Part shown: piece after piece, positions 3,133-50,452 of the stretch
Layout: the number at the start of each line of letters is the position of its first letter
Position numbering within the stretch: the first letter of the stretch is position 1
NCBI GenBank assembly: GCA_000993405.1
Contig: LBWB01000009.1
Span: forward strand, 13,848-77,847
Source of the DNA: Candidatus Woesebacteria bacterium GW2011_GWB1_39_12
Lineage (GTDB): Bacteria > Patescibacteriota > Microgenomatia > UBA8517
Length of the DNA stretch: 64,000 nt
Direction of reading: 5' to 3'
Notes under the pieces: model-generated
Told to the model about the DNA's origin: nothing
The model's database searches: none
Seen by the model: only the letters and a program-made list of their open reading frames with translations
Position numbers and translations under genes: made by a program

Positions 3133-3384
3133 ATGCCTAAAGCATTGAGGAAATATATCAAAACTGACCCGAAAATTTTAGGAGGGGCTCCTGTTATAGC
3201 AGGAACAAGGATTCCCATTGAAAGAATTTTTCATTTAGTAAGACAGGGTTATACTACAAAAACACTGGAAGAAGAATACCCGCAGTTGGAAGCTCGGAAA
3301 ATACAATACCTCTTATCCTACTTAATGGAAGCCGGCCTCGATGCCTTCAAGAAAACACAAAAGATACAACCTTCTACTCGATGA
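3133..3384 (+). CDS. DUF433 domain protein (antitoxin-like partner of a DUF5615 protein)
   Basis: 83 aa; GGAPVIAGTRIPIERIFHLVRQGYT core typical of DUF433. Confidence 0.7.
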   Translation: MPKALRKYIKTDPKILGGAPVIAGTRIPIERIFHLVRQGYTTKTLEEEYPQLEARKIQYLLSYLMEAGLDAFKKTQKIQPSTR

Positions 3385-3745
3385 GGGATTGCCTCCGAGA
3401 CAAAACTACCATCGACTGAACAATCTTCATGATGTTAAACACATTAAGCATGACTCCAAATTGGGCGGGGCTGCAGATAAAAAAGTGTTGGAGAAAGCCA
3501 AGAAAGAATCGCGTATTCTTGTAACATTTAATATAAAAGACTTTAAATTGCTTATCCATGAAGATACTCCCTCTATTATTGCCTTGTCGCCCAAACTTAC
3601 TAATTTACAGGCAGATCTTAAGATTTGTAAGTTATTAAGAAAGTTAAAAACAGGTGAAAAGAAAGGGTATCTTATTTCCATTTCCAACAGCGGAATAATT
3701 TTAAAAAGAAGATTAATTAACCAAGATAATAAACTTAAAATCTAA
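3341..3745 (+). CDS. DUF5615 (PIN-like, Mut7-C-type) protein; start uncertain, overlaps the upstream DUF433 gene
   Basis: LLLDEGLP...LGHDV-like N-terminus (NLHDVKHI), ...VLEKAKKESRILVTFNIKDF; the ORF-track start overlaps the DUF433 stop by 44 nt. Confidence 0.6.
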   Translation: MPSRKHKRYNLLLDEGLPPRQNYHRLNNLHDVKHIKHDSKLGGAADKKVLEKAKKESRILVTFNIKDFKLLIHEDTPSIIALSPKLTNLQADLKICKLLRKLKTGEKKGYLISISNSGIILKRRLINQDNKLKI

Positions 3746-3835: not shown

Positions 3836-5086
3836 ATGGACAAGACGAAGTTACAGACCTTAAAAGGTTTTAGGGATTTTTTGCCAAAGGAGGCAAGAAA
3901 AAGGCAGTATCTAATTGACAAACTAAGAAGCATTTTTGAACTCTTCGGTTTTGAACCTTTAGAAACACCAGCTCTGGAATATAAAGAAATATTGTTTGGA
4001 AAATCCGGAAGTGAAACCGACAAGTTAGCCTACTCTTTTAAAGACCAAGGCGGTCGTGAGGTGGCACTTCGCTATGACCAAACAGTTCCAACAGCCCGTG
4101 TTATGGCTATGTATCAAAATTCTCTTCCAATGCCTTTCAGAAGATATCAGATCCAGCCTGCGTGGCGAGCCGAAAATCCTCAATCAGGCCGCTTCCGAGA
4201 ATTCCTGCAGTGTGATGCAGATATTTACGGATCCCAATCCCCCATTTCGGATGCAGAGATAATCTCTCTGACAAATTACATTTTTACAAACTTGGGTTTT
4301 ACGAAATTTAAAATTTTTATAAATGACAGGAAATTACTTTTCGAATTGATGACTTTTGCCTCTATTCCTCCGGAATTACAATTTCAAGCGATAAGCGCTA
4401 TTGATAAATTAGACAGAAAGAGAGAGGACGAAGTGGGCGTCGAACTTAAAACAATAGGGCTTAGCGACGAATCAATAAAACATCTCTTTCATCATCTTGC
4501 AGAGTCTAAACCGAGCGAGAATCTTCTAAGTATCATAAAGTATGCCAAATCCCTTGGTGTTGATGAAGACAAACTCATCTTTCAAGCAAGACTAGCAAGA
4601 GGACTGGATTATTACACGGGAACTATATTTGAAGTAAAAATTGATGAATATAAAGCGGGCTCTGTTCTTGGTGGAGGCCGCTACGACAAACTTATAGAAA
4701 GCCTTTCAGGTATAAATATTCCGGCAGTCGGGTTTGGATTGGGATTTGACAGAACAATTGAGGCAATGGAACAATTTAAACTTTTCCCGGAAGAAGGAAG
4801 AAGATTTGGATCACTAATTGCCGTTTTTAATTCCGAACTCTTGGGGAAATCATTAGAGGTTACGCAAAAATTAAGAGATCAAGGAATTCAAGTTGAAACA
4901 TTTCCGGACGAAACCAAGGATTTAACAAAACAATTAAAATATGCCGACAAAAAAGGGGTCAAGTGGTTTATCGTAATCGGACCCGACGAAGCGGAAAAAG
5001 AAAGTGTAATACTTAAAAACTTGGAAACGGGTCGTCAGGAAGATTTACCTCTCAAAAACTTGATTTCTAAATTAAAAGAAGGTTAA
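3836..5086 (+). CDS. hisS: Histidine--tRNA ligase
   Basis: 416 aa; class II aaRS HisRS motifs (GFRDFLP, ALRYDQTVPTARV, GGGRYD). Confidence 0.95.
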   Translation: MDKTKLQTLKGFRDFLPKEARKRQYLIDKLRSIFELFGFEPLETPALEYKEILFGKSGSETDKLAYSFKDQGGREVALRYDQTVPTARVMAMYQNSLPMPFRRYQIQPAWRAENPQSGRFREFLQCDADIYGSQSPISDAEIISLTNYIFTNLGFTKFKIFINDRKLLFELMTFASIPPELQFQAISAIDKLDRKREDEVGVELKTIGLSDESIKHLFHHLAESKPSENLLSIIKYAKSLGVDEDKLIFQARLARGLDYYTGTIFEVKIDEYKAGSVLGGGRYDKLIESLSGINIPAVGFGLGFDRTIEAMEQFKLFPEEGRRFGSLIAVFNSELLGKSLEVTQKLRDQGIQVETFPDETKDLTKQLKYADKKGVKWFIVIGPDEAEKESVILKNLETGRQEDLPLKNLISKLKEG

Positions 5087-5089
5087 TCC

Positions 5090-5947
5090 ATGGCCCCAAA
5101 AAGAGTTAAAGCATATATCTACTTATTATTGGCAGCTCTTATCTGGGGTATCGCCGGTCCAGTTATTAAATTCACGCTTGATGGAATTGATCCCCTACCA
5201 TTCATTTCTTATAGACTTGCAATATCCGCTGTTATTTCAATCATTTTTTTTATCTTAAAAATTAAAAAAGGTAAAAAATTTAGGCAATTAAGGGTTCATT
5301 TACCTTTGGTTTTTCTTTACGGATTTTTGGCCGTTCCGGCTGCACTTGGACTACTTTTTGCCGGACTTGATAATGGAGCGGCATTCTTCAGCGAGCACAT
5401 AACTAAAAGGGAAAGGATCGGGGTTTCTATCGTGCTTTTGGGTGTTTTACTTAATTCCCTATACCCTATTATTAAAGCCGAGGGAGTCAAGCTTACTGCA
5501 AACATCTTGCTCTTTGCATACCTTTTAGCGGATTCCGGCTCAATTCTTATTGCCAAGAAACTTTCGCGTTTCAAAATTAATTCCGCCAACCTCACAAACC
5601 TGGCATTTATTATTGGTGCTATTACTTTACTTCCTTTAACGCTGGTTTCTTATGGCTGGGAAAATTTTTTTAGTCAAATTGTAAATCTACCTTTAAAATA
5701 TCATCTCGGTGTATGGTATATGGCTATTTTCTCAGGCAGCATAGCTTATTATCTTTTCGTGAGAGCTCATAAATCAATAGAAGTGTCCGAAGCGGTTCTA
5801 TTTAACTATCTCCAGCCGGTAATCACAATTCCCTTGGCAATTTTCTGGCTCCACGAAAGTATATCCCCATCATTTATCACCGGGGCTATTCTTATTACAA
5901 TTGGTCTTATAATTGCCGAATACAAAAAGAAACGCTATAATACTTGA
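5090..5947 (+). CDS. EamA/DMT family transporter
   Basis: 285 aa, ~10 predicted TM helices, two EamA-like halves. Confidence 0.75.
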   Translation: MAPKRVKAYIYLLLAALIWGIAGPVIKFTLDGIDPLPFISYRLAISAVISIIFFILKIKKGKKFRQLRVHLPLVFLYGFLAVPAALGLLFAGLDNGAAFFSEHITKRERIGVSIVLLGVLLNSLYPIIKAEGVKLTANILLFAYLLADSGSILIAKKLSRFKINSANLTNLAFIIGAITLLPLTLVSYGWENFFSQIVNLPLKYHLGVWYMAIFSGSIAYYLFVRAHKSIEVSEAVLFNYLQPVITIPLAIFWLHESISPSFITGAILITIGLIIAEYKKKRYNT

Positions 5948-5950
5948 ATC

Positions 5951-6274
5951 GTGAAAGCAAACATACATCCAGAGTGGTTTCCGGAAGCGCAAGTAACTTG
6001 TGCCTGCGGAAATACATTTAAGGTCGGGAGTACCTTACCCAAAATCGAGGTCGAGGTATGCTATAATTGCCATCCTTTTTATACGGGCCAGATGAAATAT
6101 GTCGATACCGCAGGACGTGTTGACTCTTTTGAGGCAAGACGTAAAATGGCGGTCGAAGAAAGAGTTTCCAAGACCGAGAAAAGAATGTTGAGGCGGGAAA
6201 GAAAGATTCAAAAAGAACTAGAACGACCGGATACATTAGCCGAGCTTCGAAAGATATCTAAGAAAAAAAATTAG
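5951..6274 (+). CDS. rpmE: 50S ribosomal protein L31 (GTG start) with a basic C-terminal extension
   Basis: IHPEW...CxCG...[10 protein letters not shown] zinc-ribbon signature of L31. Confidence 0.85.
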
Positions 6275-6307
6275 CAGTTTCTAACAATTAATAATCACTC
6301 ACCCCGT

Positions 6308-7024
6308 GTGATTTTATTTATGAATAACGATATCCAAAAAGTATACATCGAAATCCGGGGCGCAACTGGTGGAGATGAAGCTAAACTCTGGGGGGGCGAC
6401 CTTCTACGCATGTACATGCGCTATGCTACCAAAAAGGGTTGGCGCTCTTCCCCTATTGACGAAAAAACTCTATTAATTTCCGGCTCTCGTGCGTTTGACT
6501 TGCTAAAAAACGAATCGGGCGTCCACAGGGTCCAGCGAGTTCCAACCACAGAAAAGAGGGGCCGAATTCACACCTCGACTGCAACAGTTGCCGTTTTACC
6601 TGAAATAAAAGAAACTGAAGTACAAGTTAACCCACAAGACCTGGAAATATCTTTTTTCCGATCAGGTGGGCACGGAGGTCAAAACGTAAATAAAGTCTCG
6701 ACCGCTGTGAGGTTGGTACATAAACCGACAAGCATTGTCGTAACCGCTTCCGAAGAGCGATTTCAGGAAGCCAACAGGCAAATTGCCCTTGCCCTTCTCC
6801 GTTCTAAACTTTGGGAAAGGGAGGAAGAAAAAAAGATGACAACAATCGCCGGATACCGCTCTCCCATCGGCCGCGGCATGAGGGCTGAAAAAATCCGCAC
6901 CTACAATTTCCCTCAAGATAGGGTCACCGACCACCGAATCGGCAAATCATTTGGTAACCTTGAGTCCATAGTTGACGGGAATTTGGATAAATTGGTTACT
7001 TATCTTCAAACGGCCAATATATAA
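6308..7024 (+). CDS. prfA: Peptide chain release factor 1, N-terminally truncated (domains 2-4 only)
   Basis: 238 aa; begins at the region equivalent to E. coli RF1 residue ~110 ([23 protein letters not shown]); PTT codon-recognition tripeptide (RF1 PxT), GGQ motif ([11 protein letters not shown]), [16 protein letters not shown]. Confidence 0.8.
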
Positions 7025-7054
7025 AATTCTCCAATAATATTCTACGTACAGATT

Positions 7055-8278
7055 TTATGAATTAAACCCCATACTTAATGTAGCAAGAGCCTCGCGCAAC
7101 CGCATTTCTCTTGGATCCTCGGCAAGAGGAGGTATCATTATCTTTACTTCAGACGGAATATCCTCTGGTGTAATAATTGCAGGTTTAATTTTTTCCGGAG
7201 TTAGACCAATTCTGGGATTAGGTAGAATGACCCCTTCTGGTTCAAACCAATTCCTTCTTCCATACATTTCGTCCCTTATGCTTTTTTTCTGGATTAGTCT
7301 AAACCATTGGGTTTCAAATGTCCGCTCTCCAACCTCATCCTTCCATACACGACGTGATGACAACACATTATCCACTTGGCTGATGAATGGTTCACCAAGC
7401 CGATGAATAAAGTCTTCAAAGCGTGGGAATGACAGAGGAATTGCCCCAATTTCACGACATCTTTTTACAACTAAGTCAAATCTGGGATGGTCCCTCGCAA
7501 TATGAATTCCGAACGGGCGTAGAAGTGAATATTTGTGTAACCAGTGTCTATCAATTTCTTTACTTTTTTTATCAAAACTGCCTGATGGACAGATGTAATC
7601 ACAATAAGGTGAATAAGAAATAAGTGACGTTCTCCAAAAGGTATTTAAGTATGGCGTACTCCCTGCATCAGTAATCTCTTGGTTGGTATCCGCAACTACA
7701 ACCGTAACCATATCTTCGTACCTAATTCCATAAAGCAGTGCCACATCTTCTTCTGTATCAGTTTGAGCATATATATGACCAGGGTGTGGAATTGTATTCC
7801 ATTTTCCATGGAGTAAAAGAACTTTTAAGTTGGGGTTAAATTTTCTCCTTCGTTCTATATCAAGAGCTACTTCTTCCACCGACCCTAAAACTTTATTTCC
7901 AAGTAACTGATTTGCTGGTCCTAAATAGATATCTCTTTCCGATTGGGCTAAATTCTCTCGGGGCATTTTTCCTTGCATGAGAAGAGGGATATCTGATCCC
8001 AATAAAAAGTCGTGGAATATACCATAACTGATAGCATTGAGTTGAAACTGTTTACTGGGGTGATGATGATATCCTTCTTCATCGTAAAAACCATTGCTTG
8101 TCATAAGGAGAAGTGTTCTAATTGCCTTTGGTGAGGCTCTAACCCCAAGATGTAATAGATTGTAATTATCCTCTACTGCCTCACCGAGAGATCCATAGAC
8201 TATATCAAGAGGTAAATAGGCTTCTGGTAAACCTTTTTCAATTGCGTTTTTAAGGTCGGGGTGCACCCTCTCTGTCAC
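7055..8278 (-). CDS. Hypothetical protein (possible nucleotidyltransferase-like HxGH motif)
   Basis: 407 aa; LLLHGKWNTIPHPGH and IHIARDHPRF motifs loosely reminiscent of ATP-sulfurylase/cytidylyltransferase-fold enzymes; no firm assignment. Confidence 0.45.
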   Translation of the reverse strand: MTERVHPDLKNAIEKGLPEAYLPLDIVYGSLGEAVEDNYNLLHLGVRASPKAIRTLLLMTSNGFYDEEGYHHHPSKQFQLNAISYGIFHDFLLGSDIPLLMQGKMPRENLAQSERDIYLGPANQLLGNKVLGSVEEVALDIERRRKFNPNLKVLLLHGKWNTIPHPGHIYAQTDTEEDVALLYGIRYEDMVTVVVADTNQEITDAGSTPYLNTFWRTSLISYSPYCDYICPSGSFDKKSKEIDRHWLHKYSLLRPFGIHIARDHPRFDLVVKRCREIGAIPLSFPRFEDFIHRLGEPFISQVDNVLSSRRVWKDEVGERTFETQWFRLIQKKSIRDEMYGRRNWFEPEGVILPNPRIGLTPEKIKPAIITPEDIPSEVKIMIPPLAEDPREMRLREALATLSMGFNS

Positions 8279-8319
8279 GGTACGTAATTATACACAAGAA
8301 CTGATGAATAAAAACTTCG

Positions 8320-8412
8320 ACTGCAATCAAAGAGGGCTCGAGGCAAATGTAGATGGGAATTTGGATAAAGTAGTCGAACTTCTTCAAGAGAAATTAAAAT
8401 AAAATAACTCTT
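8320..8412 (+). pseudogene. Fossil 3' end of a second release-factor gene
   Basis: Frame-1 translation ...NFDCNQRGLEANVDGNLDKVVELLQEKLK* parallels the C-terminus of the intact prfA at 6960-7024 ([27 protein letters not shown]); no start or upstream domains. Confidence 0.45.
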
Positions 8413-8415
8413 CTC

Positions 8416-9387
8416 TCATTCGACAAAAAGTGACTCATTGTAACCAATACGATTTAAGTCTTTTAAAAAATCACCCTTAAGATACTCAGATATATCCCAT
8501 TTTTGCGATTTCAATCCTGCATTCTCTACCCCAATACTTAATCTTTCTACTCTCGTTGAAATTGACTCAACCGGCAGATCAGGAATTACTCGTAAATTTT
8601 GTCTAACAAAAAGATTGGTAATTTCTTCTATACTCATAGTTCCAGGCGTAAGTTCTTGCACGGCTTCTGTTGTACTTAGTAGAGGATAAGGATGGGTGAT
8701 CCTACAATCTAAATCCTGTTCTCCCCTTGCCAACTTTTCCGTTAGATACGGATCCTTCTCATGAACAAAAAAATATTTAGCACCGGAACCTAAAAACAAC
8801 CCATTATAGTGGTCGTTATCTGGTAAATCCCGAGTATTTCTTGGCAGTACTGTAAGATGAGTTAATGTCCCTTCGTGAACCCACATAGAAAGCCTTAAGG
8901 GAAGTGAAAGAAAAGGCGCCTTGCGGTCCTTCCTTTGCATATATTCATCCTGTTCAAATCCCCAAATTGTCACAGGAACAACACGTGCCATATACTTTGC
9001 CGCATGCACATGACCTTTGTGGCCTTCAGCCCCGGCAACAAATAACATGCCGGTATTTTCATCCCTGTATTTTGTTTCAAGTAAGCTGGATAAATCTTCG
9101 AACTTAACTAATTTATCTCCGGATGACACCAATCCTGTTCCTGATTCTAGCTGAGGTGCTTTTAGCAAATCCTTCCAATAGCCAAACCATTCAGGTGCGA
9201 GCACCTTTCTTCTTGCGAAATTTGGGCCGGGATGAGTAACTAATAATTGTTCAGCCTCCTTAAGCGCAGCAAGTACATTTTGGGGCGCAAAGACAACCTT
9301 TTTATCAAGCATTTCTTGCCAAGTTATTTTGGGTAAAGCTTCGGACTCGAAGTTAATGAAGAACCTCGGTTTGTTTTCCGCCGTCAT
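8416..9387 (-). CDS. Hypothetical protein (possible HxGH nucleotidyltransferase-like motif)
   Basis: 323 aa; FVAGAEGHKGHVHAAKYMA motif; adjacent to and co-oriented with the 407-aa unknown. Confidence 0.45.
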   Translation of the reverse strand: MTAENKPRFFINFESEALPKITWQEMLDKKVVFAPQNVLAALKEAEQLLVTHPGPNFARRKVLAPEWFGYWKDLLKAPQLESGTGLVSSGDKLVKFEDLSSLLETKYRDENTGMLFVAGAEGHKGHVHAAKYMARVVPVTIWGFEQDEYMQRKDRKAPFLSLPLRLSMWVHEGTLTHLTVLPRNTRDLPDNDHYNGLFLGSGAKYFFVHEKDPYLTEKLARGEQDLDCRITHPYPLLSTTEAVQELTPGTMSIEEITNLFVRQNLRVIPDLPVESISTRVERLSIGVENAGLKSQKWDISEYLKGDFLKDLNRIGYNESLFVE

Positions 9388-9432
9388 TTGAGGCGATTAT
9401 ATCACTTGCGAAAAGGTTGAGAGGGTGCTATT

Positions 9433-9792
9433 TTGGCGGAAATGGAAAGAATACTTAGAAAAGGCAAAGAAATAGACCCAAAAAATCAATCTTTTATAAT
9501 AGAATTTGCAGGTACACCTCTTTGGAAACGTGGAGAGAAAATTCAAGTATATGGAGATTATTTAAAACATTCTTTTGGTTTCGATGTAAGATATAACGCA
9601 ATCGACCCGACACAAGAGACAGAACTTATAACTACTGAGGATGTTTTAATACTCGCACTGTCAACAGTAGACCGAGTTGCGAAAAGTTCAAATAAGGGTA
9701 GATACACTGGAGTTTTACTTCCTGGGGGCATTCTGGAAGAATTGACAAAAATATGTTATTACAATATAGAGAAAAAATTGGTTTGGCAATAG
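9433..9792 (+). CDS. Hypothetical protein
   Basis: 119 aa ORF with no recognisable domain; overlaps the next ORF by 40 nt in a different frame (possible split gene). Confidence 0.35.
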   Translation: MAEMERILRKGKEIDPKNQSFIIEFAGTPLWKRGEKIQVYGDYLKHSFGFDVRYNAIDPTQETELITTEDVLILALSTVDRVAKSSNKGRYTGVLLPGGILEELTKICYYNIEKKLVWQ

Positions 9793-10163
9793 TTGTATTG
9801 CTTTCACCCACCACTTCTTTATCTGAAGATACCATTGCTTCTTTGCATTACGAGAAACACGACCAATATGAGTTATTATCCTCGTTAAGTTCTAAACCCA
9901 GAAGAATAATGAACGAAGGAAATTTAATAGAATTAAACGGGTGTTTTGTAGATACAATACGAGAATATGGGGGAGGGTTTAACAAAATTCACACAGTCGA
10001 CTTAAGAGATATTGAGTTACCTTTTCGAGAAGAAAAAATAGGACTCGCATTTGCGGGGGGGATTTGGACAGGACTTTTTACCCTTTACCCGGTTCGTTTC
10101 CGCTTCGCGAATACAAACCTCTTCCTAAAACACCACTTCTTGTACAAAAAACAGACTAATTAA
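9753..10163 (+). CDS. Hypothetical protein
   Basis: 136 aa ORF with no recognisable domain. Confidence 0.35.
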   Translation: MLLQYREKIGLAIVVLLSPTTSLSEDTIASLHYEKHDQYELLSSLSSKPRRIMNEGNLIELNGCFVDTIREYGGGFNKIHTVDLRDIELPFREEKIGLAFAGGIWTGLFTLYPVRFRFANTNLFLKHHFLYKKQTN

Positions 10164-44880: not shown

Positions 44881-45258
44881 TTAACTAACTATCCTAAAAC
44901 CTGTTTCCTTGACTACAGTTAGTTTATTGTTTAAGTTTATTGAGGGTTTTGGATTCTCAATAAACCTTCTGAGAATTTCATTGACGTTCTCGGGTGTTTG
45001 ATTTTTTGTTCGTACATGTATTATTCCAATCTTGCCCTTCTCACGGAAATACCATAGATCCGCAAAATCACGGTCAAAGGTAATAATAATTCTTGCTTCC
45101 CTTTTAGCTTTCTTCACTACCTCTTCATCAGACAAATAATGAAGCTTTTGCTCAAGAATTGAGGTAGCATCAAAATTAAGATTTCTCAAAAATTCTGCAG
45201 TAAGTGGAGAAAGATTTGCATCCAAAAGAAATTTAGGCAAAGTTGTAGTTTTCCTCAC
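44881..45258 (-). CDS. DUF5615 (PIN-like) protein, second copy
   Basis: KFLLDANLSP...ARIIITFDRDF. Confidence 0.65.
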   Translation of the reverse strand: MRKTTTLPKFLLDANLSPLTAEFLRNLNFDATSILEQKLHYLSDEEVVKKAKREARIIITFDRDFADLWYFREKGKIGIIHVRTKNQTPENVNEILRRFIENPKPSINLNNKLTVVKETGFRIVS

Positions 45259-47602: not shown

Positions 47603-47977
47603 TCATTGGGCTGGGCCGATGAGGGATTGGAGCTTGGCGACCAAACCCGTTATTGCAAAATCAGTTTTGACAATGTAGTCTTTAGCTCCCAAGCCCATTG
47701 CTTTCTCTATATCTTCTTTTTGACCTAAGTTAGAGGCAACAATAACAGGAATATTTTTCCACTCGTCATTTTTCTTCATCTCGGAAAGAACCGAGAAACC
47801 GTCCTTTTTTGGCATTACCAAGTCCAATATAATAAGATCGAATTTGCCCTTTTGAAGCGCCGCAAGTGTTTCCTCACCGTCTGCAACCAAAGTTACGTCG
47901 TATGAAGCTTTAGTAAGTTTTACTCTATAGGCATTTGCTAAAAATTTATCATCTTCGGCAACAAGTATTTTCTTCAT
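47603..47977 (-). CDS. Single-domain response regulator (CheY-like receiver) 3
   Basis: ILVAEDD...DLIILDLVMPKKDG...K; 124 aa. Confidence 0.85.
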   Translation of the reverse strand: MKKILVAEDDKFLANAYRVKLTKASYDVTLVADGEETLAALQKGKFDLIILDLVMPKKDGFSVLSEMKKNDEWKNIPVIVASNLGQKEDIEKAMGLGAKDYIVKTDFAITGLVAKLQSLIGPAQ

Positions 47978-48357
47978 GAATTCTTAAGTGTCTCGCGAAC
48001 CTTGGCAACAACTTCATCTAACTTCCAATCAGTCTTTACTAGATAGGAGTTGACTCCTTTATCTTTGCTTTCTTCAATGGTTGATGCATCGCTTAAGTTT
48101 GAAAGAATTATTACGGGAACATTTTTCCCCCACTCATCTTCCCGAAGTCTATCAAGAAGCGTAACCCCGTCCATAACCGGAAGAACGATGTCTAAAAGTA
48201 CCAGATTGGGATGTTTCTCTAAAGCTGCCGCCAAACCTTCTCCACCATCAAAAGCCTCCAAAACTTCAAACCCTCCTTTTTCCAGCTTTCTTTTTATCGC
48301 CTTAGAAAGAAGCCTCTCATCTTCTACTAATAATACGATTGTCTTTTTATCACTCAT
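47974..48357 (-). CDS. Single-domain response regulator (CheY-like receiver) 2
   Basis: 127 aa receiver domain; ATGA overlap with the next gene. Confidence 0.85.
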   Translation of the reverse strand: MSDKKTIVLLVEDERLLSKAIKRKLEKGGFEVLEAFDGGEGLAAALEKHPNLVLLDIVLPVMDGVTLLDRLREDEWGKNVPVIILSNLSDASTIEESKDKGVNSYLVKTDWKLDEVVAKVRETLKNS

Positions 48358-48389
48358 ACTACTTGCTCTTAGCCATTATAGTTTTACAC

Positions 48390-48776
48390 TCAGTTCTTTT
48401 CAACGGTTTCCCGAAGTATTTCTATAATGTCCTCAAGTCTATATTGCGCTTTTAATAAATACTGTTTTACTCCAAGTTCGAGCATCGAATTTTTCTTTTC
48501 GTCGCTGGCTGAATTACTGACTACAACAACAGGTATTTTTGCCCAGGCTTCTTTTTTCTTCAATTCCCGCATAAACTCCAATCCGTTCATGTCCTCAAGA
48601 TAGTAATCGAGCCAAATAACGTCCGGAAATTCTGTTATATTAGTTAAATAATCTATCGCTTGCTTGGCCGAAGTACACGTAATAGGTTCAAAACCCTTGC
48701 TTGTTAATTTTTTGGAAATAGCCTGAAGAAGCAGCTCTTCATCTTCAATTACCATCACTTTTATCGTTTTTTCCAT
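48390..48776 (-). CDS. Single-domain response regulator (CheY-like receiver) 1
   Basis: 128 aa receiver domain. Confidence 0.85.
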   Translation of the reverse strand: MEKTIKVMVIEDEELLLQAISKKLTSKGFEPITCTSAKQAIDYLTNITEFPDVIWLDYYLEDMNGLEFMRELKKKEAWAKIPVVVVSNSASDEKKNSMLELGVKQYLLKAQYRLEDIIEILRETVEKN

Positions 48777-48796
48777 TTCTTTTATTATATATTATC

Positions 48797-50452
48797 CTAT
48801 ATATCTATTGTAACCTCTCCTTCTTTTTGAACACTACCCGAAAGCGGTACGGCAAACCAAAACGTAGTACCCTTACCCTCATCGCTTTCAAACCAGATTC
48901 TCCCTCCTGATGATTCGACAATGGCTTTAGTCAAATATAGACCCAAGCCGGTTCCTTCGGTTTCGATCTTGATCACGTTTTCTGCTCTGAAGAATTTTTT
49001 GAAAACCTGCTCGTGCTGGCGCCTCGGAATACCGTATCCACTGTCTGAAACTTGAGAGACAACCTCGCCATTCTTTACAGATATAATAATAACGATTTCA
49101 CCCCCATCCGGCGTATATTTTATCGCATTTGTCAGAAGATTCATGTAGACGTGCCTAATGAGTCTGGGATCGATATTCACCAAAGGAAGATTCTTATGGA
49201 TGGAAATTGCTAAATGCTGTTTCTTTTTATCAAATCTTGGTCTAACTTCAAGAATCACTTCGTCAAGAAGTTTTCTTAAATCAGTCGGCTTGGGATCAAT
49301 TATAATCCTCCCTGATTCAATTCGTGAAATATTCAAAAGTGTATTCACCAGTTGAATCATGCGCTCATTAGATTGATATATATTTGTAAGAAGTTCTTCT
49401 TGCTCCTTATTCAGGTCTCCCGCGTCGCGATCTAAAAGAATTTCACAAAACCACTTCATTGCAGAAAGAGGAGTTCTGAGTTGGTGTGAAGCAAGCGAAA
49501 TAAACTCAGTCTTCATTCTATCTATTTCCTTTTCTTTGGTGATGTCTCGAAATACATCGACTCCTCCGATAACTCTGTCAAAGACTATTACGGGTGTTGC
49601 AGTTATAGAAACCGGAAATTTACTGCCGTCGCGTCTAACAAAAAAATAGTTGGTGCTCTCGATTTTTTTCTTTAGAAAAAGGGCATTTCTGATGGGACGT
49701 TCATTTACGCTTACCTCTTTATCGTCTTTGTCAAACATTTTTATCGAATACCAAATTGGTTTTCCGATGAGTTCATCTTGCTTTAGACCAGTCATGTATT
49801 CAACTTGTTGATTTGTAAAGATTATTTCCCCTCTATCGTTTATTCCAACCACGCCGTCTCCAATATTCGCAAGCATTGCGTCATCCATCGCTTTTTCCTC
49901 GGCAAGTTCTCTATTCTTACTAACAAGCTCTTCCTGAATTTTTTTCTGTTCAAGGGAAATCTGATAGGTTAACGAACTCCTCAAAAATTCCACATCTACC
50001 CAGGTAGATAAGTCTTTTAAGGTTGAGACTTCTAAGTCAGAAAATTTCCTAGGCAAGCGGTCTGCCAAAAAAAGACTCCCGACGACCGAGAGGTCCGAAG
50101 CTCTTATGGGTACGCCCGCAAAAAATCGTATTTTAGGTCCATCGGTAACATAAGGATTACTCTTAAATTCCTCATTTTGAAGAGTATCCTCAATAATAAC
50201 CATCTCTTCTTTTAAAACGACGGCGTTAGAAAAAGAAGTGCTTCGATCTTCCGTCAAGTGGTCAAGTCCCTGTATAGACTTAAACCATACCTTTTGAGCG
50301 TCAACCAAAGAAATTCCGGCGACGGGAACGGCAAAAATTTTTGAAGCAAGACGCGTAATTATTTCAAATCTCTCTTCTTTCGGAGTATTAAGAAGGTTCA
50401 AACTCGTTAGGGCTATTAATCTTTTCCTTTCTTTTTCTTTCTCAGGATCCAT
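48797..50452 (-). CDS. Cytoplasmic sensor histidine kinase (GAF-PAS-HisKA-HATPase_c)
   Basis: No TM helix; GAF N-terminus, PAS, H-box SLASHQLRTPLSAM, ATP-binding N/G boxes. Confidence 0.9.
   Translation of the reverse strand: MDPEKEKERKRLIALTSLNLLNTPKEERFEIITRLASKIFAVPVAGISLVDAQKVWFKSIQGLDHLTEDRSTSFSNAVVLKEEMVIIEDTLQNEEFKSNPYVTDGPKIRFFAGVPIRASDLSVVGSLFLADRLPRKFSDLEVSTLKDLSTWVDVEFLRSSLTYQISLEQKKIQEELVSKNRELAEEKAMDDAMLANIGDGVVGINDRGEIIFTNQQVEYMTGLKQDELIGKPIWYSIKMFDKDDKEVSVNERPIRNALFLKKKIESTNYFFVRRDGSKFPVSITATPVIVFDRVIGGVDVFRDITKEKEIDRMKTEFISLASHQLRTPLSAMKWFCEILLDRDAGDLNKEQEELLTNIYQSNERMIQLVNTLLNISRIESGRIIIDPKPTDLRKLLDEVILEVRPRFDKKKQHLAISIHKNLPLVNIDPRLIRHVYMNLLTNAIKYTPDGGEIVIIISVKNGEVVSQVSDSGYGIPRRQHEQVFKKFFRAENVIKIETEGTGLGLYLTKAIVESSGGRIWFESDEGKGTTFWFAVPLSGSVQKEGEVTIDI

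Follow-up and report, generated by a model that had tools for sequence, protein, structure and literature searches.

The region examined here is a 64-kb stretch of the genome of Candidatus Woesebacteria bacterium GW2011_GWB1_39_12 (Microgenomates, Candidate Phyla Radiation or CPR), which we refer to as the window and to which the analysis is confined. Our subjects are prfA, the gene for release factor 1 (RF1), and a second, degraded prfA 3′ end downstream of it. The local gene order is hisS (3836–5086), a gene for an EamA transporter (5090–5947), rpmE (5951–6274, + strand) and prfA (6320–7024, + strand), which encodes an RF1 of 234 aa consisting of domains 2–4 only. These are followed by p407 (7055–8278, − strand), which encodes a 407-aa ORFan and appears to be an imported cargo gene, by the fossil prfA 3′ end (8286–8402, + strand), equivalent to RF1 residues ∼196–234 plus the stop codon, and by p323 (8416–9387, − strand), a 323-aa gene that appears to be the ancestral downstream neighbor of prfA. 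The spacer between p407 and p323 measures 137 bp. Four independent assemblies, made from other samples, match positions 5374–9744 at 100% identity, which rules out an assembly chimera as the source of the arrangement. We consider it probable that two things together explain this locus: a minimal but working RF1, and a native prfA tail that was displaced by recombination.

RF1 without domain 1

The maximal prfA open reading frame (ORF) runs from a GTG at 6308, but because the RF1s of relatives begin MNNDIQK, the likely start is the ATG at 6320. Only 45 nt separate this ATG from the end of rpmE at 6274. In Pfam, the RF-1 domain (PF00472) is complete (1.8e-35, profile positions 2–116 of 116), whereas the PCRF domain (PF03462, 2.8e-33) is matched at profile positions 95–194 of 194 only. 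The NCBIfam prfA models likewise align from profile position 100–108 on, and score ∼100 bits above the prfB model (209.4 bits). Both prfA scores, 304.9 bits for TIGR00019 (profile positions 108–349 of 361) and 312.8 bits for NF001859, fall under the equivalog cut-offs (423.25 and 400, respectively), since one third of the model has no counterpart in the protein. In a search of PDB sequences, residues 4–227 align with residues 107–342 of Escherichia coli RF1 and 106–342 of Thermus thermophilus RF1, and one loop of domain 2 is shorter by 10 residues than in the solved RF1 structures. The PTT tripeptide that reads the stop codon (6542–6550) and the GGQ motif (6674–6682) are both intact. The AlphaFold (AF2) model of the protein has a pLDDT of 78.6, and its first structural element is a beta strand that starts at residue 9; Foldseek matches it to the closed form of Thermotoga maritima RF1 (1rq0) with a TMq of 0.77 over 234 columns. 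The original prediction for this stretch, that its RF1 lacks domain 1 and retains PTT and GGQ, is borne out by the start of the alignment at E. coli residue 107 and by the short upstream interval.

Canonical RF1 (prfA; TIGR00019, PF03462 plus PF00472) is by far the best family match, sharing domains 2–4, the PxT motif (here PTT), GGQ and the rpmE–prfA neighborhood. The window RF1 differs from it in the absence of the whole of domain 1 (∼105 residues), in the shortened domain-2 loop and in its sub-threshold equivalog scores. PrfH (RFH, TIGR03072) is also a natural release-factor homolog that lacks domain 1 and keeps GGQ, but its decoding region is different and an rtcB-like gene always accompanies it. 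Against the PrfH model, the window RF1 scores 65 bits (cut-off 166.65), with the GGQ domain only, and the adjacent upstream gene is rpmE, not rtcB. ArfB/ICT1 shares the GGQ domain but has no codon-reading domain, which the window RF1 does have; the match to the ArfB model is confined to residues 103–138 (50.7 bits, cut-off 100). The closest architectural parallel is artificial. According to Mora 2003, as related in PMC1586002, E. coli RF1 and RF2 engineered to lack the N-terminal domain retain stop-codon recognition and peptide release but lose the ability to stimulate RF3. Those proteins are laboratory constructs in an RF3-bearing cell, whereas the truncation in the window is natural, fixed in the lineage and under strong purifying selection. 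Most probably, prfA encodes a working RF1 with decoding (PTT), catalytic (GGQ) and C-terminal domains and no domain 1.

Two candidates for a relocated domain 1, capture by rpmE and separate encoding, were ruled out within the window: profiles of the full domain and of half of it, made from related RF1s, have no match anywhere in it, the L31 tail and the rpmE–prfA spacer included. The rpmE product, ribosomal protein bL31 (107 aa; Pfam Ribosomal_L31 at residues 1–63, and NCBIfam L31), carries a C-terminal tail of ∼40 aa that is rich in K, E and R and has no similarity to RF1 domain 1. Among loci L001–L172, bL31 is 101–117 aa long at nearly all Woesebacteria loci, 95–106 aa in other Microgenomates and 67 aa outside the CPR. 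One assembly (L012) lacks 41 bases of the L31 tail (equivalent to window 6131–6171) and has 10 others instead, giving a 69-aa L31 that ends in TGA; the difference may be strain variation or an artifact of assembly. The rpmE stop codon in the window is TAG, which is RF1-specific and lies in frame with prfA, 45 nt before its ATG. A read-through fusion of L31 and RF1 is rejected as a conserved feature, since the two genes lie in a common frame at only 32 of the 81 loci. TAG ends rpmE in 24 of 64 unique loci, compared with 14 of 81 when hisS and EamA are pooled (Fisher 0.008, uncorrected for phylogeny), and the stop codon of prfA itself is TAA in 67 of 74; the TAG preference of rpmE might be a hint of RF1-dependent coupling.

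Graded RF1 lengths across the CPR

The best 120 database homologs of the window RF1 (75–100% identity) are all 230–264 aa long, many of them on contigs of 0.5–0.95 Mb, and 70 complete metagenomic RF1 ORFs have a median length of 233 aa. The short form is thus lineage-wide, and the idea of a local accident or of gene decay at this one locus is not sustained. At the loci of GTDB species representatives, RF1 measures 231–243 aa in Woesebacteria, 298–315 aa in other Microgenomates (Levyibacteria, Curtissbacteria and similar), 276–329 aa in several Parcubacteria and Saccharibacteria and 350–365 aa outside the CPR. The N-termini of the ∼300-aa forms map to positions ∼50–95 of a 103-position domain-1 profile: in the other Microgenomates the first half of domain 1 is gone and only the second remains, and in non-CPR bacteria the domain is complete. 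Among cluster representatives at 50% identity there are a few short RF1 clusters, most RF1s being 340–370 aa.

A deeper relative (L056) has the hisS–EamA–rpmE–prfA order of the window together with an RF1 of 358 aa, and the same order also accompanies the ∼300-aa forms. This shared order makes the short prfA the positional ortholog of a full-length prfA. In the 81 loci with a short RF1, the rpmE–prfA spacer ranges from −14 to 163 nt. As judged from these alignments and gene orders, domain 1 was lost in place, and its absence is fixed and strongly conserved across the Woesebacteria lineage. The Woesebacteria RF1 would then be the end point of a graded reduction that extends across the Microgenomates and other CPR groups. 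No description of a shortened RF1 in CPR bacteria was found in the literature searched, and the truncated protein is apparently an undescribed reduction of a core translation factor.

Two smaller differences among the short RF1s may be mentioned here. The RF1 of the closest sampled genome (L001, 6001–6795) reads RASTQGGQ at the catalytic motif, where the window and the more distant Woesebacterium L005 read RSGGHGGQ. L001 RF1 also has an N/Q-rich N-terminal tail of 30 aa, and low-complexity N-termini of 10–30 aa are present in many relatives.

Predicted termination with a minimal release factor

Stop codons were counted in 75 non-overlapping window ORFs of at least 100 aa, of which 43 end in TAA, 17 in TAG and 15 in TGA. 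Since TAG ends 17 of the 75, UAG termination, and hence RF1 activity, is needed. TGA is still a stop codon, as had been predicted, and it ends the GNAT and DUF433 genes; a GIY-YIG gene, cited as a further example, was not identified in Pfam scans of the window. Genes for RF2 (prfB), RF3 (prfC), PrmC and L11 (rplK) are absent from the window ORFs of at least 100 aa.

Domain 1 of RF1 is a helical bundle, which in E. coli contacts the L11 stalk and recruits RF3. It is dispensable for codon recognition and peptide release, and truncated RF1 is functional in vivo; stimulation of RF3 does require it, and prfC is absent from many small genomes (Mora 2003, as related in PMC1586002). The short RF1 would be expected from its domain content to read UAA and UAG and to hydrolyse peptidyl-tRNA as usual, and may leave the ribosome without RF3, because domain 1 is needed to stimulate RF3 and prfC is often missing in small genomes.

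A broader proposal, which we offer tentatively and hold at slightly less than even weight, is that the CPR dismantled the domain of RF1 that contacts RF3 and the L11 stalk in steps, with domain 1 whole in some members, halved in many Microgenomates, Parcubacteria and Saccharibacteria and gone in Woesebacteria. The latter would terminate at UAA and UAG with domains 2–4, needing neither RF3 nor the stalk contact, in co-evolution with a reduced ribosome. The conserved prfA core would in addition have served as a recombination anchor through which ORFans are swapped between lineages, leaving stacked tail fossils behind. Domain 1 has so far been called accessory on the strength of engineered truncations. 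Woesebacteria, where it is gone from the only visible RF1 and where sister groups preserve intermediates, offer a natural experiment that bears on the purpose of domain 1, on recycling by RF3 and on the L11 contact. The compact protein may also suit structural and in vitro studies of termination on reduced CPR ribosomes. A practical consequence is that short RF1s do not reach the NCBIfam equivalog cut-offs, and annotation may mark them as partial.

A second prfA 3′ end downstream of p407

A + strand reading frame between p407 and p323, both of which are on the − strand, ends at 8402 and encodes RGLEANVDGNLDKVVELLQEKLK followed by a stop. It is the top non-self tblastn match of RF1 in the window, with an E of 0.048 (the next match has 1.3). 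A profile of relatives' RF1 C-termini finds it as the sole extra match (domain E 0.0024, score 7.1), and 0 of 100 shuffled windows score above 1.0 with this profile. Beyond prfA and this remnant, the 64 kb contain no other release factor-like sequence. When compared with the genuine RF1 tail of one relative, P0100 (VDGNLDKVVDLLQEKLK, stop), the remnant gives an E of ∼1e-7, and 16 of the 17 residues of its tail, VDGNLDKVVELLQEKLK, are identical to those of P0100, with the stop at the same position. Read in frame from 8286, the fossil encodes NYTQELMNKNFDCNQRGLEANVDGNLDKVVELLQEKLK and a stop, comprising 38 codons where RF1 has 39. Its core (8337–8402) is well preserved, and 8286–8336 is degraded but has kept frame and length. 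Neither known RNAs nor promoters or terminators were found in the fossil region. A release-factor 3′ remnant ∼1.3 kb downstream of prfA had been proposed from inspection alone, and its similarity holds under these comparisons.

The functional tail (6905–7024) and the fossil thus form a direct repeat that flanks the insert. Over 66 nt, the fossil is identical to the functional prfA tail of L001 at 55 positions (83%) and to the resident prfA tail at 42 (64%); the resident tail matches that of L001 at 38. L001 and L002 represent the closest sampled genome (hisS 87.5%, rpmE 83% and EamA 78% aa identity). The L001 prfA ends in LLQEKLK, and neither p407 nor the fossil is present there. The fossil stop lies 13 bp from the p323 stop, and homologs of p323 (54–69% identity) are found directly downstream of prfA, in convergent orientation, at L100/L118, L155, L164, L093, L097/L098, L132 and L136. 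Because the fossil adjoins p323 and most closely resembles the tail of the working prfA in the sister lineage, we regard it as most probably the native 3′ end of this same prfA, still in its original place, with no second release-factor gene needed. The original prediction is therefore confirmed as an observation and supported in part as an interpretation: the locus has been rearranged, with a displaced prfA tail and an apparently imported p407, but the attribution of the remnant to a second release-factor gene gives way to its position beside p323 and its nucleotide match to the sister tail.

Similar fossils occur at two other loci. L005, a distant Woesebacterium (hisS 64%, EamA 40–45% identity), has a p407 homolog, p409 (74% identity), in the same position directly after prfA, followed by its own longer and differently damaged fossil (IKTDNYPQDRVADYRIVKSV, stop, NSYEVVELLQEKFN, stop; E 2e-5). 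The functional prfA tail of L005 is of the unusual LQSANI type, as in the window. L147 carries an independent prfA 3′ fossil at 4744–4846 (QNRVIDHRINKSF / GNLDSIINGDLDKLIQKLQKDN, stop), which contains one frameshift, lies 60 bp after the functional stop and directly abuts a homolog of the 320-aa gene of L001, with no inserted gene. Here the functional tail is deviant and the fossil is consensus-like, which argues for allele replacement over simple tandem duplication. In the window, L005 and L147 alike, the fossil starts near the same NYPQD motif. A possible second and older RF1 fossil was tentatively noted in L005 at ∼7930–7985, between p409 and the clearer fossil (RAYYYPKYRITKYRLNK compared with RTYNFPQNRVTDHRINK; E 0.008 in a 457-bp search); if genuine, it would suggest repeated replacement events.

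Recombination as the probable source of the displaced tail

The synonymous positions of prfA point to a mosaic gene. Compared with L001, four-fold sites of the window prfA are identical at 14 of 18 in codons 1–60 and at 21 of 59 in codons 61–234, and the upstream genes are identical at 141 of 271. Codons 61–234 differ in this respect from codons 1–60 (Fisher 0.0025) and from the upstream genes (Fisher 0.03). Codons ∼1–60 thus look sister-like and the remainder looks imported, as far as substitution patterns can indicate. For p407 compared with L005, 60 of 118 four-fold sites (51%) are identical, but only 73 of 252 (29%, i.e. saturation) in the flanking genes (p = 7e-5); this excess over saturated flanks implies that p407 moved between lineages.

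Displaced gene ends are known from prophage e14 in icd, from elements in the 3′ ends of tRNA genes and from homology-facilitated illegitimate recombination in transformable bacteria. As in those systems, the window has an intact gene with an incoming 3′ end, an insert and, beyond the insert, the orphaned native end of the gene as a diverged direct repeat. It differs from them in that the insert is one ORFan with no recombinase or element backbone, and in that L147 bears the same scar without an insert. In the model that we favor, foreign Woesebacterial DNA with a divergent prfA 3′ part and p407 would have recombined into the locus, the left crossover falling inside the conserved prfA core. The right join, near the NYPQD motif, could have been illegitimate, or could be a crossover with a fossil that the donor already carried. 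The imported 3′ part would complete prfA, and the native tail would be left 1.3 kb downstream, decaying beside its old neighbor p323. Natural competence is documented in the CPR (PMC10633639).

Several points weigh against this combined account of a minimal RF1 and a displaced native tail. The nearest-neighbor ranks of prfA segments support a mosaic weakly and are only suggestive. The 3′ part of the window prfA has a synonymous identity of ∼31% to L005, no closer than the genome background, and the mosaic signal consequently rests on small site counts (tens). The donor of the imported segment is outside the sampled genomes. The shared cassette of the window and L005 could stem either from one event followed by transfer or from two events, and the right join is one that we infer. 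On the side of the protein, the search covered the 64-kb window, in which no second full-length prfA, separate domain 1, prfB, prfC or rplK was found.

Other explanations of the repeated tail can be set against the same observations. The remnant might descend from a second release-factor gene, a prfB or a prfA paralog, that once stood here, and it is indeed a genuine release factor-family C-terminus with its own stop codon. This origin is nonetheless very improbable: the remnant is nearly identical to the P0100 RF1 tail, its DNA is closest to the sister-lineage prfA tail, and it lies exactly where relatives' prfA ends, beside p323. There is no further release factor-like sequence upstream of it, nor any second release-factor gene near prfA in the 172 loci, where the only such extras are two analogous prfA fossils. 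A local tandem duplication of the prfA 3′ end, with p407 inserted later between the copies and divergence of the functional tail, would account for a gene-end direct repeat around an insert, as expected from a staggered-break or duplication–insertion event, and for the two tails of L147 that lie only ∼60 bp apart. We nevertheless judge it unlikely, since the supposedly neutral copy is nearer to the sister functional tail (55/66) than is the copy under selection (38/66), L147 repeats the pattern of consensus-like fossil and deviant functional tail, synonymous identity to the sister falls from codon ∼60, far upstream of the duplicated part, and p407 bears a signal of transfer.

A site-specific integrative element with its attachment site in the 3′ end of prfA, which supplied the gene with a new end and was later reduced by decay to p407 alone, is a somewhat more doubtful proposition. 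The recurrence of one cargo and one architecture at this gene end in two lineages distant from each other, and the shared NYPQD boundary of the three fossils, are what such an element would produce. Searches of the insert with Pfam, NCBIfam and PHROGs, however, found no integrase, transposase or phage-like gene, p407 being its sole gene, and the absence of a recombinase weakens the element model. Two other p407 family members reside in unrelated contexts without release-factor fragments, L147 has a fossil but no element, and decay to the same single gene would be needed twice, or before a later transfer. For prfA itself, it could be argued that the short gene reflects pseudogenization, a wrongly called start or an error of assembly and that a working full-length RF1 is encoded elsewhere, given the sub-threshold NCBIfam scores and an analysis that covered 64 kb of the genome. 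Little credence is due to this argument in view of >100 independent short homologs at 75–87% aa identity (many on the long contigs noted above), a locus identical in four assemblies, the lack of upstream room in 81 loci, positional orthology with the full-length RF1 of L056 and the existence of intermediate ∼300-aa forms. That the downstream similarity arose by chance is hardly credible. The clear core is only ∼22 codons long and the tblastn E of 0.048 would not suffice alone, but none of the 100 shuffles reached the remnant's profile score, the stop codon is at the homologous position, homologous fossils exist in L005 and L147 and the DNA is 83% identical to a real prfA tail.

Gene turnover at the prfA flank

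The p407 protein has no match in Pfam, NCBIfam or PHROGs, and its family amounts to only 4 clusters in 5.8 billion proteins; a scan of GTDB genomes found no relatives. The other two family members, besides p407 and its L005 homolog, are not near prfA. An AF2 model of p407 from a 4-sequence alignment has a pLDDT of 43 and is unusable. An HxGH motif is present in both p407 (HPGH, residues 164–167, after a predicted beta strand) and p323 (HKGH, residues 123–126), and is reminiscent of nucleotidyltransferases as a sequence pattern; the two proteins have no detectable similarity to each other.

The gene after prfA varies even among close relatives. In a set consisting of the window, L001, L005, L100 and L147, it may be a p323-type gene, a 320-aa type, a p407-type or a 599-aa gene, none of which has a Pfam match. 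This flank of prfA has the look of a hot spot for the turnover of ORFans. The fossil is of narrower interest as a clean scar, open to dating, that recombination between lineages has left in unculturable organisms, and it marks the flank as a site of gene turnover.

Other features of the window

At window positions 5374 and 9744, other assemblies of the same population (compare L009 and L010) have ∼59 extra bases. EamA is 305 aa long in these assemblies and 285 aa in the window, and the overlapping window ORFs at 9433–9792 and 9753–10163 are a single 260-aa gene there. The differences at the two positions are probably assembly gaps or genuine indels in the window record. Elsewhere in the window, an overlapping DUF433/DUF5615 (PIN-like) gene pair is located at 3133–3745 and a second DUF5615 gene at 44881–45258. 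Three tandem response-regulator genes stand beside a GAF-PAS histidine kinase gene at 47603–50452.

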